From: Escherichia coli
Lineage (GTDB): Bacteria > Pseudomonadota > Gammaproteobacteria > Enterobacterales > Enterobacteriaceae
NCBI RefSeq assembly: GCF_024298765.1
Contig: NZ_CP101211.1
Strand: one strand, 5' to 3'
Length of the DNA: 64,000 bases
The position numbers are program-made. This document shows, in pieces, positions 47,101-56,100 of the stretch (positions are counted from its first letter, which is position 1; every line of letters starts with the position of its first letter).

Positions 47101-50100
47101 GTGCCACAGAAACTCTTGACCGAGAGGAAGTGGCAAAGCGAATGCGAAAACTTGATGTGATGTATCACTATACCGGTGAAATCAAGCCTAATACTCCTGT
47201 TGCTTTGTACCTCCGTAATCGTGGGATCTCCCGCTTACTGAGTCACTTACCAAAGGATTTAGGCTTTAATAACCGGATCTACTATTGGGATAAAGATAAG
47301 CAGAAATCGATTATCTATCCGGGAATGATTGCGATCTATCGTGACACCCGAGGTCGGCCTCTGACTATTCATAGAACATACGTAGACAAAAATGGTGATA
47401 AGGCACCTGTAGAAAATCCAAAGCTGATGATGAAGCCTCCTGCCGATATGACAGGTGGCTCAATTCAGTTGTTTGACCCTCACTATGATTCAGGTAGTTC
47501 GACCTGGACACTGGGAGTGGCTGAAGGGATCGAGAACGCGCTTTCTGTTGTAGAAGCGACTTCAACACCATGCTGGGCAGCCAGCTCCGCATGGTGCCTT
47601 GAAAACGTTACTGTTCCTGATTTTTTACTGCCTCCGCCGGATGTAAAATCTATAAACTTTTATATCTGGGCGGATAAGGATATTGCTAACTCACAAGGCA
47701 CTCGTGCCGGTATTGAAGCTGCTCAGCGACTTCAAAGCCGCATGGTTGAGTTTTTGGCTAAACGATATCCCGCATCAAAGCTGACAATTGAAGTCTTCGA
47801 ACCAGCACAAGATATTCCTGATGGGAAAAAGGGTATCGACTGGAACGATGTTCTCCAGTTAACAGGGCAGGATGGATTCCCGATTCACTGGGCTCCTGAA
47901 TGTCTTAATCAGCTGTAACAACGATAACTCCCCCGCTTTTTGCGGGGGGGGTTATCTTATCAATATTATATTTTAAAATTGTATTGATAAGATAACCGCT
48001 TTCCTTCGTGATAATTACCTGCCTTTAAGGTCTTTTCACGGCTGAGATGCTTGCTCAGTTAAATAAATGTGCGGTACTACTGGCTATGGTCGGTTGTATG
48101 ACATGGTTATTCCATAAACTATTAAAACCCATAACGGGAGTATTACCGTTATGGTGATGCTCGTCGTTTTACATCGGAGAGCATTTTAATGAATTTTCAA
48201 ATTAACGAAGTTTTTAATAAATTTGCTGCTGTTATAAAATCGCGCATCGTCAATGAACCATCGTCATGCTATTTGCTGCATGATAATGAGATAGATATAA
48301 CGATTTTGAAACATAGCATATTAGAAAATGACAGAAACCTGTTGTACGTAGTTCGTCCTTCAGGAACGTGTTTGTTGCGTTGTGACAAATATTTCTATCC
48401 GAAATATTATCTTCGTTGCCGTGGAGATTATAAGTCATTCATATATGTCCATCTTGATCTACATAGTGGTGAAGCTAAAGAAATCACATGGGAGCAAGCA
48501 GACGATATGCTGTCTAGTCCAGGAAAACCCCCATTAAAAGGGAATCTTGGACGATTTGAGTATATAAAAGTTGTGGTTGAGGACCTTCGTATTCGAGGTT
48601 ACGCTGATTATCTTCCTGCGTATAATCTTGATGACCTTCGCCGTTTTGCCTTACAGGACGACCGCCCATCCCTTGTCAGATACATTGACAATGTCATGGC
48701 AACGGTCTGATTGATTGCTAATTGATTTACATATTTTCCCTGATGGCCAACCTGCATCAGGGAGGCCTCAATAACGAATGGAGGCTGTATGAAGTTAGCT
48801 ACGGACCTGGTAAAAGCTATTTTGATTAGAAATGGCGTTGAACCAGTAAATATAAGCGAATCATCTAAGTTATCTTTGAAACAACCACTGACAGAACTTA
48901 AATTCAGTTTATATTTGCGAACTGAGCATTTATCTCACTTCCTACCCGGTTATGTTTATTCTATAAAAGAATGTCCACTGTCATATGACATCGGGATCGA
49001 AATTCAGAAAATCTTCGAAAGTTTACATTTGTTAAACGAAGAATTTGAATCCCTCGGTTTTGTTTCTGTATGGATAGAAATGCATCAAAGCATTTTTGAA
49101 CAAAGTCGGTTTAAGAAAAGTAACTTTACTTTTCGGGAGGAAGAGGTCGAGCTTGCTAAAGGGCTTGTTTGTTCTCACAATTCACAAATAAGTAATGCGG
49201 CTTATTTCTGGCTTCAGCACTTTGAGGAGTTTATGATTTATGTTCGTAATAAGCTTATCGACCTCTTTCGAGAGGCCTATGACCTGATCCTTGGAATGCA
49301 GCAAGTATTTTTCATTCGGGAAAAGGAAGAGCTGTTGAAAACTATAAGTTATGGCGATGAGCTGTATGAGGTGAAATTCATGGCGGCTGAGCTTTACTCT
49401 ATCGAACAGAACTTAAAGTGTTCTGAATCGATAAGTACAAAATCTCAAGCTTCGGCATATATTAACCGCATCCGTGAGTTTGTGCGTTCGGGGTGGAGGC
49501 AGGGCTATATAGTCTGCCATCATAAGCGAAGTAATCAAATTTCATCATTGTCATTACCGATGTACTTGAAAGATACGTCAGGCCGAAGTGCTCGAAAGCG
49601 AGTAAAACGTCTTATATCTTCTACAGTTTGTGGTAGAAATAAAGATTTAGGTCTTACAGATTTTTAATTAAATTATACCCATGTGGGGATCACACCCCAT
49701 ATGGGAGTGATCCCTTTTTTTATTGAGAGAGGATCACATGAAAATTATCGAAAAAATCATTAATGCCTTTTTGGTTGTTCAACATAAAAAAATACAGGTT
49801 AAAAACATTACATTTTTAGACAATGGGCAGGGCATGTTCTCTGGTATGTCTTTTGATGCTGATGTTTCACTGGAGTTTATGTATGAATCAGCAAAAGCAT
49901 ATAGTTCTTGTTTCTGTGATATTCCCTTTCCAGGTTTTGAAGATGCAAATCTGGAGGAAATTACGAAATTTCAATTAGATGCTCTGAAGCAAAGAAAGAA
50001 TCATTCTTTCTTTGTTAACCATTTGAGGTTTCCTATAGTTTTAAGGGAAGGGTGCAAAATCGAAAGAGGAGAAGTCTATTCAATTTCGAATTGCACTTAT

Positions 50101-53100: not shown

Positions 53101-56100
53101 TCTCTGGTCAGTACCTTGAAATTTCAGGAAAACACTTTGCAACTAGTCGTTTTGAATATGATGATGTTTGTAGTGAAGTTCTTAGCATGTCTAATGATGT
53201 TTCTCAGTCGAAAGGTTATGACCGGGATGAATATAACAGACTGATGCAGGTTGATGGTCAGGTTATGATTGCCCGTTTTGCTTTGCAACAGTTCTGGGAT
53301 ACTCATTTTATTGGACTAATAACATTTGTATCTGAGTCTATAACATCGAGCCTCTATAAAGCTTATGAAACTTTTAGTGATATTAGTTTGGCTTGCTATA
53401 AACTGAGTGAATATTCTTATTCACGCTCGGTAATGACTCCAACTTATTGATAGTGTTTTATGTTCAGATAATGCCCGATGACTTTGTCATGCAGCTCCAC
53501 CGATTTTGAGAACGACAGCGACTTCCGTCCCAGCCGTGCCAGGTGCTGCCTCAGATTCAGGTTATGCCGCTCAATTCGCTGCGTATATCGCTTGCTGATT
53601 ACGTGCAGCTTTCCCTTCAGGCGGGATTCATACAGCGGCCAGCCATCCGTCATCCATATCACCACGTCAAAGGGTGACAGCAGGCTCATAAGACGCCCCA
53701 GCGTCGCCATAGTGCGTTCACCGAATACGTGCGCAACAACCGTCTTCCGGAGCCTGTCATACGCGTAAAACAGCCAGCGCTGGCGCGATTTAGCCCCGAC
53801 GTATCCCCACTGTTCGTCCATTTCCGCGCAGACGATGACGTCACTGCCCGGCTGTATGCGCGAGGTTACCGACTGCGGCCTGAGTTTTTTAAATGGCGGA
53901 AAATCGTGTTGAGGCCAACGCCCATAATGCGGGCGGTTGCCCGGCATCCAACGCCATTCATGGCCATATCAATGATTTTCTGGTGCGTACCGGGTTGAGA
54001 AGCGGTGTAAGTGAACTGCAGTTGCCATGTTTTACGGCAGTGAGAGCAGAGATAGCGCTGATGTCCGGCGGTGCTTTTGCCGTTACGCACCACCCCGTCA
54101 GTAGCTGAACAGGAGGGACAGCTGATAGAAACAGAAGCCACTGGAGCACCTCAAAAACACCATCATACACTAAATCAGTAAGTTGGCAGCATCACCTTCA
54201 CGCTCTATCAACAGTGAATTGACCCTTAATATTTCACTTAAAGAAAATGACTTCTGTGAGGACCTATCTGATTGCTATATGGAAGATGAGGCTTTACCTT
54301 CTGGTAGGGTAATTTCTCGACGCAACAATGACTCCATAATAAGTATTTATGAGAGCTATGCTGCGGCTTCTTATATTCCGATGATTGCATCTTTGGAAGT
54401 CGTTGATGAATACGGCGAAGTGGTTACTGACCTCTGCCATACCGTTTATGTTTCAGAGTTAACCGGTGGGCGGATTAAAATCCACGACCGTAATGACTTA
54501 GTATCTGAAGTTTTCGATAACCTAAGAAATTTAAATCTTGCAGTTGGAGATTCAGTTTCACAAGCTGCTTGATTCTTTCCCTGATTTTGATTTTTTCTCA
54601 CATACTCTTATGGCACGGTTTCCGTGCCTTTTTTTTGCCTCGCTTACAAGCGTCTACTCCTCTTCTACCTATCCCACCTTACATCACCACTTAAAATCTA
54701 TCTTTCTAATTCCATTATCCTTTTCGTAGCCTCTAATGCTCTGGTATGAACATACTCTTTAAACTCAAAAAAGTGCTATTAACGAAAAAAAATCCCTAAA
54801 GAGATTTGTATACTGTTCTCAACCAAGGAGAGCTCATGAATGAACTAAAATCCAAAAACGAGAACAGTACCAAAAGCAACTTTCCCCCGGTTGATAATCA
54901 GTTTTGCTTTTACCATGTTGATTTCAGCATAGAACGACTACTTTCTACGGCCGAGGATCTCCAGCTTGAGTACATCTTCCAGAAACCTGGAAGTGAAGTA
55001 AGAAAGGATTTGGTTGAGCGATTCGAACGTGGAGAGCGCTTTGTTACAGCTTCACACTGTGACAATTTCTGTGAAATCCTTGGTTGTCAAGGCCATCAGG
55101 AAAATGCATAAACCCATAAACCTACATTTCCACTTTTAAGGATGTTCACTAAAGAATGATTGGAGAAAGTATTTTTGACTGGGTAATTTACGGAATATCC
55201 ATTTTGATATTTGCCTCAGCACTAATTGAAGGAAAGACAACTCGCTACCCAGCACTTTTTTTCTATGGGAGTTTAATTTTAATGTTAATCCTGATAGTTG
55301 CTGGAGGCCTTAACTGGTGGTTCTACAGGTCAAAATATGGCGCAGTAATCGTTATCTTCACAGTGGTTTCTTTACTGATGACTCGATTCCGCCTGGTCAT
55401 ATATAAATTAAGATTAAGAAAGTTAGTTTCAGAGATCAGATTTCGTATAAAAACGGGTTTTCGTATAATTCTTGTTTTGTCGGATAATGAGGATGAGCGT
55501 AATGTTCTGCTGTCTATGCTTAGCAACGTATTGCCAGAGCAAACGCTTATTCACACGCGTGATGCTCTCGGACCTCATTCAGGGCCTATCCTAAAAGCTC
55601 TTGAGCTACATCATCAACAGGGAACAGGTTACATACTCGTCTGTGAACAACAAATCTCAGCGCGTACGTGGTTGAGTATCGTAGAAAATGGGAAACCTGA
55701 TACATCTATAGCTGTTAATTTTCATTCGATCCCAGAAATGGAGTGATTTTTCAATGAGTAGAACCGTTTCACAAAGTGTCACAGAAGATTGTCTTTTTGA
55801 TACCCGCACACAAGTCAGATTACAACTAAGTCGAAGCGTTCATAAAACGCTGGCATCTGCTAAAGAAATTTTACAGGGAAGGGGGGTTGATTCGGTCTCT
55901 ATTGAAGATCTTGTGCGAGCCTGTCTTGAAGAGAACCAGCCAATTGATCTCGCCTCACTTTACCTTGAAAATCTCTTAAAACAGAAAGGTACCAGCATTT
56001 GCGATTTTTAGTGTTTTCAAACCTATTAGATAAAATGCCGGTTGTGTTTATATAACATCAATAATTTCATGCAACAGGTAAAACATGAGTACTCAAAAGC

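Follow-up and report, generated by a model that had tools for sequence, protein, structure and literature searches.

The window analysed here is a stretch of 64,000 nucleotides (nt) from one Escherichia coli contig (NZ_CP101211.1, assembly GCF_024298765.1), and it contains at 48789-54572 a tandem array of five open reading frames (ORFs), referred to below as A to E. We found that these are ancient paralogues forming one orphan family with two deep subtypes, type 1 (A, B and C) and type 2 (D and E), and that, in silico, a conserved leader RNA precedes every cistron of the array. The region is conserved backbone of an IncHI2 conjugative plasmid (MOBH, MPF_F): a 7.2-kb query matched hundreds of IncHI2 records at 99-100% identity, among them pXJW9B277-HI2-N (IncHI2A, MOBH, MPF_F). 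Genes follow in the order AAA ATPase, DUF3150, VWA, an ORF of 73 amino acids (aa), toprim/primase, Z, A, B, C, D, E, F, G ... Tus, integrase and Hha, and RefSeq labels all of those from the primase to Tus 'hypothetical protein'. A preliminary description of this DNA had placed five same-strand ORFs here, the last split by the insertion sequence (IS) IS1, and all were confirmed on the + strand:

48189-48710, + strand: Z, located upstream of the array in every lineage examined
48789-49667, + strand: member A, 292 aa, type 1, isoelectric point (pI) about 8
49738-50673, + strand: member B, type 1; the ORF ends early at 50493 (251 aa), with a nonsense codon at 50494-50496
50742-51662, + strand: member C, 306 aa, type 1, paralogue of B
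51729-52667, + strand: member D, 312 aa, type 2, acidic, pI 4.8
52839-53428, + strand: 5' part of member E, type 2
53429-54196, - strand: IS1, 768 bp, inside E, with the InsA/InsB ORFs on the minus strand
54197-54572, + strand: 3' part of member E
54612-54636, + strand: terminator-like hairpin and T8 after E, of the intrinsic-terminator type

By sequence, D and E are unambiguous paralogues. As the preliminary description had noticed, they align over their full length (BLASTP E-values 4e-17 and 2e-16; hhalign probability 100%, E 8e-43), and the initiation region that they have in common, GAGGTAGTGTA(A/T)ATG, turned out to be part of a leader that recurs throughout the surrounding regulon. Profile alignment strongly supports B and C as paralogues as well (hhalign 95.4%, E 1.7e-8, columns 1-251 against 1-245, z 12.3). 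Direct BLASTP among the five proteins returned only D-E and a weak B-C match, and the remaining relationships needed profiles and bridging sequences. When merged profiles were aligned by hhalign, with 60 block shuffles per comparison as the null, BC matched DE with 82% probability (E 1e-5, z 8.8), A matched BC with 54% (E 1e-4, z 5.5) and A matched DE with 30% (E 5e-4, z 5.9). The observed score lay above all 60 shuffles in each comparison and every alignment was collinear; the control proteins Z, F and G gave nothing against the A-E profiles, with hhalign probabilities below 1% for Z, a protein that also has no match in Pfam, NCBIfam, PHROG or PADLOC. Among the bridging sequences, a 271-aa protein (L006_271) matched the A profile at 2e-19 and the C profile at 4e-6, the C orthologue of L009 matched A (8e-6) and B (1e-6), the A orthologue of L021 matched B (4e-6) and the E orthologue of L020 matched A (2e-5). 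On these alignments the bridging sequences link A to B and C, and type 1 is a remote homologue of type 2. Profile and bridging evidence thus bears out the earlier suggestion of a tandem family of very divergent paralogues on a conjugative plasmid with no characterised relative. The N-terminal motif that had been proposed for all five (helix ...[AS]-[IFV]-L..., then G-h) was recovered in A, C, D and E, but B lacks the glycine.

Structure prediction, which had been suggested as a check, gave a confident AlphaFold2 model for D (predicted local distance difference test, pLDDT, 89.5; predicted template modelling score 0.84). The model of A, built from 9 sequences, is of low confidence (pLDDT 56), although its elements follow the same order as in D: an N-terminal helix, beta-hairpin, helices, strand, helices, a helix of ~45 residues, beta-hairpin, helix, beta-sheet and C-terminal helix. 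The two types differ in charge, with pI values of 6.3-8.5 (neutral to basic) for A, B and C and 4.3-5.3 (acidic) for D and E. The proteins have a grand average of hydropathicity near or below zero and helical, amphipathic N-termini. The preliminary description had listed exclusion among the possible roles, but we consider this unlikely and set the surface-protein reading aside, as no hydrophobic, membrane or signal segments were apparent by inspection (no dedicated predictor was run).

Synteny of the array extends to IncHI1A plasmids (pT28R-1, pHCM1 and R27), IncHI1B-typed plasmids and one further lineage (L021), with orthologues 45-64% identical to those of IncHI2. We left pYSP8-1 (L005) out of these comparisons, as its assembly is full of frameshifts. 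The arrangement Z-A-B-C-D-E occurs in IncHI1A, IncHI1B, IncHI2 and L021, Z-A-C-D-E in L019, Z-B-C-E'-D' in L009 and Z-A'-DE' in L006/L007. By lineage, then, the array has five, four, four or two members (and one for NgrC, the relative introduced below), and the smallest array thus consists of a single gene of each type. These comparisons show that the array occupies a fixed slot in the IncHI-type backbone (toprim/primase - Z - [array] - F - G ... Tus), and that member number has been altered between lineages through gain and loss. Every array keeps at least one type 1 and at least one type 2 member, and this retention of both subtypes, together with their charge split, hints at hetero-oligomeric partners.

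Diversifying selection, which the preliminary description had proposed for this locus, finds no gene-wide support in the substitution rates, nor in the gene order, which is conserved across IncHI lineages. Between IncHI1A and IncHI1B, ratios of nonsynonymous to synonymous substitution (dN/dS, NG86 method) were 0.17 for A, 0.17 for B, 0.14 for C, 0.23 for D and 0.24 for E. These values are like those of neighbouring genes of the backbone, which span 0.06-0.21, with a single short ORF at 0.81. The array members are under purifying selection, and the divergence of the paralogues is old, not recent. They are also among the faster-evolving genes of the backbone: identity between IncHI2 and IncHI1 is 48-55% for A-D versus 79-81% for the primase and DUF3150 proteins.

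Two of the five members are disrupted in this plasmid. B is only 251 aa long because of an in-frame nonsense codon (...IKYE*WLGPVD...), beyond which 60 codons are still in frame to 50673; the full-length protein has 311 aa (P0050) and is annotated in a plasmid that differs by one base. The exact sequence of the window at this codon was present in at most 66 of 1115 records. The IS1 copy in E is flanked by a 9-bp target duplication, TTCACGCTC, at 53420-53428 and 54197-54205, and intact E has 318 aa (L001). A query for the uninterrupted target site found it in 1117 plasmid records, with this insertion in ~14 records among the matches listed. Most IncHI2 plasmids carry a full-length B, and both lesions are rare minority alleles. 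E is also split, by IS2, in the conjugative reference plasmid R27 (L012 8238-10530), and further insertions in or near the array involve ISVsa5, an IS3-family element and ISKpn26 (plasmids H6, H111, H119 and H150). Such independent insertions suggest either tolerance of disruption at the locus or occasional selection against it. At the start of a Salmonella Cubana plasmid record (NC_021819.1; L004 4-516), RefSeq gives a truncated copy of E the name 'TTC39/IML2 family protein', which is almost certainly spurious, the piece being a fragment of the A-E family.

These lesions bear on two alternative views of the array. It could be a functionless or decaying relic of old duplications, a passive load tolerated since H-NS and HtdA keep it silent: two of the five members are inactivated here, IS elements lie in or near it in several plasmids (IS2 in R27, ISVsa5, IS3-family and ISKpn26), its expression in wild-type R27 is near background and the region is AT-rich (32-39% GC). 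However, dN/dS values of 0.14-0.24, ORFs retained down to ~50% amino-acid identity in at least four lineages, the rarity of the broken alleles and a translation-control leader kept at every member all speak against a relic. The selection data largely refute this explanation, which we regard as highly improbable. A second possibility is that A-E are donor-side accessories of conjugation, acting as chaperones or adaptors of type IV secretion substrates or as modulators of the cost or timing of transfer; their expression alongside the tra genes would then reflect a site of action in the donor. This we think quite unlikely, given that E is broken in R27, the model conjugative IncHI1 plasmid, that B and E are both disrupted in the IncHI2 backbone studied here, and that the structural resemblance that might favour it is far below significance. 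Published mutational analyses of the Tra1 and Tra2 regions reportedly do not list A-E as essential for transfer.

The most unexpected result concerns the junctions between the genes. The preliminary description had noted a structured palindrome before each member; strong hairpins are indeed present at all of these junctions (weaker at Z-A), but they are not specific to the array, being common to the regulon and to other MOBH plasmids. The leaders lie as follows, where SD denotes the Shine-Dalgarno sequence:

48129-48185, + strand: leader of Z
48737-48786, + strand: leader of A, with hairpin 1 followed by an anti-SD:SD hairpin 2
49678-49737, + strand: leader of B, with GGGGATCAC as SD mimic, GTGATCCC as anti-SD and GAGGATCAC as SD, which co-vary with the IncHI1 versions
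50684-50734, + strand: leader of C, with a 15-bp hairpin 1 followed by a CCCTCT:AGAGGG hairpin 2
51668-51726, + strand: leader of D
52780-52836, + strand: leader of E, homologous to the leader of D
40106-46349, + strand: upstream part of the regulon, with four more leaders of the same design from the whole-window descriptor scan, before the starts at 40162 (R0001 homologue), 43062 (DUF3150), 44267 (VWA) and 46351 (73-aa ORF)

Each of the Z-A, A-B, B-C, C-D and D-E junctions folds as two adjacent hairpins. The first has 9-15 bp, is typically of the form (A)ACCC...GGG and carries a copy of the SD region; in the second, an anti-SD is paired with the SD of the next gene in the minimum-energy fold. 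Folding z-scores were -4.1 to -6.9 (0 of 200 shuffles) for A-B, B-C, C-D and D-E and -2.1 for Z-A, versus values near 0 for three control junctions downstream of the array; the IncHI1 junctions score much as those of the array do. This design is kept in all 21 junctions examined from five lineages, despite differing sequences. In each of the 21, the 5' arm and loop of the leader's own hairpin 1 are complementary to the anti-SD too, with a mean pairing energy of -11.3 kcal/mol for cognate versus -6.8 for non-cognate combinations and the same direction in 21/21, although orthologous junctions are related and the 21 are thus not independent. The predicted pairing of the anti-SD with the hairpin 1 copy is of about the same strength as that with the SD itself. 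At A-B the three elements co-vary between lineages, reading GGGGATCAC / GTGATCC / GAGGATCAC in IncHI2 and GGGGATTAC / GTAATCC / GAGGATTAC in IncHI1. A MAFFT alignment of the leaders, which is not structure-aware, let RNAalifold recover the inner stem only.

To find further copies we used an explicit structural descriptor scan with shuffled controls. Across the whole window this gave ten clean instances at annotated starts, all on the + strand and all within the block 40162-52839, namely those of the R0001 homologue, DUF3150, VWA, the 73-aa ORF, Z and A-E. None fell at tra or other annotated genes of the window, and the other descriptor matches were intragenic, of another shape and at about the shuffled rate (0-2 per window). 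The same element precedes ~16 genes of a block in plasmid pAQU1 (L013 21.6-47.5 kb), including exo, yfaE and NgrC, and ~6-7 genes of an IncC locus (L014 3.7-10.3 kb), again including NgrC, and it occurs in L006 and L009. Given ten regulon genes in the window and other MOBH plasmids with this leader, it is thus a property of the regulon and not of the array. Rfam 15 had no relevant match at E<=1 in 47800-55200 and no gathering-score match in the whole window, the pAQU1 locus or the IncC locus, and we found no paper describing the element. A separate near-perfect 19-bp hairpin at the start of the toprim/primase gene (46600-46690; fold z -7.7) has a shape unlike that of the regulon leader.

The palindromes could be read as intrinsic terminators, but this is ruled out by their build, in which hairpin 1 is followed by an anti-SD with no U-tract; the hairpin after E (54612-54636) and an alternative C-D hairpin (51682-51700) are the only ones that fit a terminator pattern. 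Rather, the leader would keep translation of each cistron off by default through occlusion of its SD, and a shift to pairing between the mimic and the anti-SD, or a bound factor, would free it. The trigger might be a trans-acting factor, co-transcriptional folding or, at short junctions, the terminating ribosome of the upstream gene. At A-B, B-C and C-D only 5-10 nt separate hairpin 1 from the preceding stop codon, and such a ribosome could act there; at Z-A (~26 nt) and D-E (~110 nt) it could not. Because of these two long spacings, simple ribosome-mediated coupling is ruled out as the general trigger.

Expression data for the array come from the IncHI1 plasmid R27, whose genes were matched to those of the window by their order in its record. 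R0204 thus corresponds to the primase, R0203 to Z, R0202 to R0199 to A to D in turn, and R0198 to the 5' portion of E. In published microarrays (PMC7366339), R0204-R0002 were among the most cold-induced genes, at 5-23-fold at 25 versus 37 °C. In wild-type R27, R0198-R0203 were near background, with 27-129 units at 25 °C against 9-61 at 37 °C, and in a mutant without the conjugation repressor HtdA (htdA) they rose at 25 °C to 2740-6669 units, that is by 38- to 115-fold (115-fold for Z, R0203), and stayed at 16-64 units at 37 °C (PMC7366339). Beyond the array, R0192-R0183 were expressed constitutively (PMC7366339). As shown in R27 and transferred here by orthology, the array is the distal part of a block under the HtdA-TrhR/TrhY conjugation circuit and temperature. 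Given this silence in the wild type and derepression without HtdA, the array is therefore expressed together with the transfer genes. Its GC content (32-39% over 48000-53500, versus 42-46% in the flanking backbone) fits a block that is kept silent at 37 °C by an H-NS-type mechanism.

The R27 signal was 3-5-fold lower at Z than at the primase (R0203 versus R0204). Between these two genes lies a 270-nt spacer (47919-48188) with a predicted structure of -99.8 kcal/mol, in which a terminator-like CTCCCCCGC..GCGGGGGGG hairpin (47928-47950) is followed by an AT-rich inverted repeat, TTATCTTATCAATA..TATTGATAAGATAA. This structured spacer could be an attenuator or a protein-binding site, and the drop in signal fits attenuation within it. 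At the other side of the array, the GGCACGG..CCGTGCC-T8 hairpin after E also occurs in the IncHI1 loci L002 and L003 and is likely the distal end of the transcription unit. Further upstream in the block, the VWA protein (44267-46279) has a long, extremely acidic, low-complexity segment with runs of E, D, S and T (net charge -72, pI 4.4), which is unusual among VWA proteins of AAA_5/MoxR-type modules.

By sequence the family is narrow. Searches among 5.8 billion proteins returned 44, 28 and 12 clusters, HMMER, run exhaustively with the D/E profile on 1.8 billion representatives, gave 40 matches, and tblastn matches were confined to IncHI-type plasmids. A-E have no match in Pfam, NCBIfam, PHROG, PADLOC, PDB or viral structures (BFVD). 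A Foldseek search of AFDB50 with the D model reached beyond orthologues, to full-length uncharacterised proteins of ~300 aa with 10-14% identity (E 1e-10 to 1e-4, template modelling (TM) scores about 0.5-0.65), from many Enterobacterales and a few other Proteobacteria. Some of these are named 'NgrC', including A0A4R8FL14 (E 7.8e-9, query/target TM 0.56/0.61) and A0A759MCE3 (E 5.3e-5, TM 0.44/0.49), and ~15 further uncharacterised proteins of ~300 aa match D at a TM of about 0.6. As these TM values are moderate, the likeness of D to NgrC holds for overall architecture only. In the literature we found the name in a single place, a table of the paper on the MOBH plasmid pAQU1, where it stands for orf131; the supplements of the IncC AcaCD paper do not contain it.

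We identified the pAQU1 NgrC ORF at L013:45730-46635 and found its homologues in 1415 plasmid records, at ~47% identity in IncC plasmids and ~25% in large Klebsiella IncHI1B/IncFIB plasmids, among others, with several annotated as NgrC. A five-sequence NgrC profile aligned with the DE profile at 29% probability (hhalign E 5.8e-4, 218 collinear columns, z 5.6, 0 of 60 block shuffles), and hmmsearch with the E profile scored pAQU1 NgrC at E 0.018; the hhalign comparisons of NgrC with the BC and A profiles were not significant. E (pI 4.3, net charge -30) and NgrC have an N-terminal S-x-x-[HY]-C-Q-[GS]-D-x-x-x-F motif in common, with the residues CQSDE in E. E orthologues carry the CQ[GS]D core, as do the single D/E-type members of both L006 and L009; D lacks it, and so do A, B and C. 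Type 2 is probably the IncHI counterpart of NgrC, itself an uncharacterised single-copy gene, and the array is most aptly classed as an expansion, specific to its lineage, of an uncharacterised NgrC-like family.

The genomic neighbourhood is also alike. In IncC and pAQU1, NgrC lies 1-2 genes from a toprim gene, in a long same-strand block downstream of traN, and the array is placed likewise, on a MOBH backbone beside a toprim/primase gene. The pAQU1 block also has AAA, DUF3150, VWA and bet/exo genes, the IncC block has orphan methyltransferases and yfbR, and in other plasmids NgrC adjoins orphan methyltransferases and a homologue of the theta subunit of DNA polymerase III (Pol III); a PAPS-reductase-like gene is also among the neighbours of NgrC homologues. 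Such surroundings raise the possibility that NgrC-like proteins are accessories of the adjacent primase (toprim/DUF7146), or handle single-stranded DNA (ssDNA) during complementary-strand synthesis after transfer, and do not act against host defence. The toprim neighbourhood is conserved in IncHI, IncC and pAQU1, the array belongs to the same regulon as the primase in R27 (R0204), and one Foldseek match is a 708-aa protein with DUF1738, the ssDNA-binding N-domain of ArdC. That match is weak, however (query TM 0.39), the paralogues have no conserved nucleic-acid-binding or catalytic motif in common, the strong acidity of D and E speaks against DNA binding, NgrC homologues in other plasmids have no adjacent primase, and five paralogues are hard to explain for a single primase. 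We therefore judge the primase-accessory explanation unlikely.

The reading that we favour is that A-E are proteins made when the plasmid transfers, which would aid its establishment in a new host, for instance through neutralisation of host factors for defence or DNA processing. They would be binders rather than enzymes, since they are cytoplasmic and have no motif conserved across the paralogues. A set of paralogues would allow more than one target to be covered; alternatively, type 1 and type 2 would be partners. We prefer establishment or anti-defence because the array is expressed only while the plasmid is competent for transfer, because it is dispensable for conjugation itself and for maintenance, as follows from the disruption of E by IS2 in R27 and by IS1 here, and because its relatives lie among recombination, methyltransferase and primase genes. 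The bet/exo genes, found in the pAQU1 block, reportedly mediate the repair of breaks made by CRISPR-Cas. A published study (PMC7498323) describes IncC plasmids and SXT/R391 elements as mending CRISPR-Cas double-strand breaks during conjugation. An anti-defence or host-range factor, as the preliminary description had suggested, is the most plausible functional guess, with indirect support from the co-regulation in R27 and from the neighbours of NgrC. As an assignment of function it is tentative, and it may well prove wrong.

Several observations weigh against this interpretation. A-E resemble no known anti-defence protein in sequence, profile or fold, and their dN/dS values carry no gene-wide arms-race signature. 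The link to NgrC consists of sub-threshold profile statistics and Foldseek TM values of about 0.45-0.6, type 1 has no direct match to NgrC, and, as the model of A is of low confidence, a fold common to type 1 and type 2 is a presumption. The microarrays are those of IncHI1 R27 and not of this IncHI2 plasmid. The leader switch is a thermodynamic prediction, for which simple ribosome-mediated coupling cannot be the general trigger (Z-A ~26 nt, D-E ~110 nt). The origin of transfer (oriT) lies outside the analysed region, and on the R27 map it is in Tra1, tens of kb away; a position of the array in the leading region is conjectural; the hairpins found are likewise of a short mRNA-leader type tied to start codons, not ssDNA promoters of ~300 nt (Frpo-like). 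Even so, the explanation as a whole is the best that we can offer, and we put it forward as a working account that is somewhat more apt to be revised than to stand in every part.

IncHI2, IncHI1 and IncC plasmids are major carriers of mcr, carbapenemase and multidrug resistance genes in Enterobacterales, and most of their conserved backbone is labelled 'hypothetical'. Five such anonymous genes now form one family, tied to NgrC of IncC-type plasmids and placed in the HtdA/TrhRY conjugation regulon, and the regulon genes of the block have in common a leader of a conserved, undescribed translation-control type. Read jointly, NgrC-like proteins (one in IncC and pAQU1, two to five of two charge-complementary subtypes in IncHI) would make up a novel effector class of MOBH plasmids, coupled to conjugation and acting in establishment or anti-defence, with a fold absent from PDB, and the AACCC hairpin/anti-SD/SD leader would be a new class of cis-regulatory RNA that gates dozens of cistrons in long transfer-activated operons of IncHI, IncC and pAQU1 types, probably via a dedicated trans-acting factor or a folding switch. 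So broad a combination is, in our estimation, on the unlikely side. The analysis as a whole yields two hypotheses: that the array is a transfer-coupled module, open to deletion, on which establishment in new hosts may depend, and that the RNA element could serve MOBH plasmids as a shared point of control over gene expression and also be a shared weak spot.

Among known systems, the nearest functional parallels are the anti-restriction and establishment proteins ArdA, ArdB/KlcA, ArdC and PsiB and the orphan methyltransferases, which are made early in transconjugants. A-E differ from these in having no sequence, profile or fold match to any of them, and no structure of the ssDNA-promoter type was identified. 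Like them, they are plasmid-borne, cytoplasmic, dispensable for transfer and expressed with the transfer programme, and NgrC homologues adjoin orphan methyltransferases and the Pol III theta homologue. ArdA and Ocr are strongly acidic, as are D and E. The leader resembles SD-sequestering leaders, such as coupling hairpins, ROSE and fourU thermometers and attenuator-like switches, in pairing the SD with an upstream anti-SD, and it resembles three-element attenuator-like switches in having a third complementary element as the alternative pairing. Unlike these, it is repeated before ten genes of a consecutive block here and before ~16 in pAQU1, has a characteristic (A)ACCC...GGG first hairpin and has no match in Rfam; its regulon is cold-induced, the opposite of the classical heat-opened thermometer. 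NgrC itself is single-copy, in contrast to the two to five members of two subtypes in IncHI, lies upstream of the primase gene where the array lies downstream, and is only about 10-14% identical to the array proteins, with CQ[GS]D lost in D and type 1. Yet NgrC and D/E are of similar size (259-301 versus 312-318 aa), D matches NgrC by Foldseek, the D/E profile aligns with that of NgrC collinearly at a sub-threshold score, E has the N-terminal motif and a conserved C-terminal Arg in common with NgrC, and NgrC is preceded by the same leader RNA as the members of the array.

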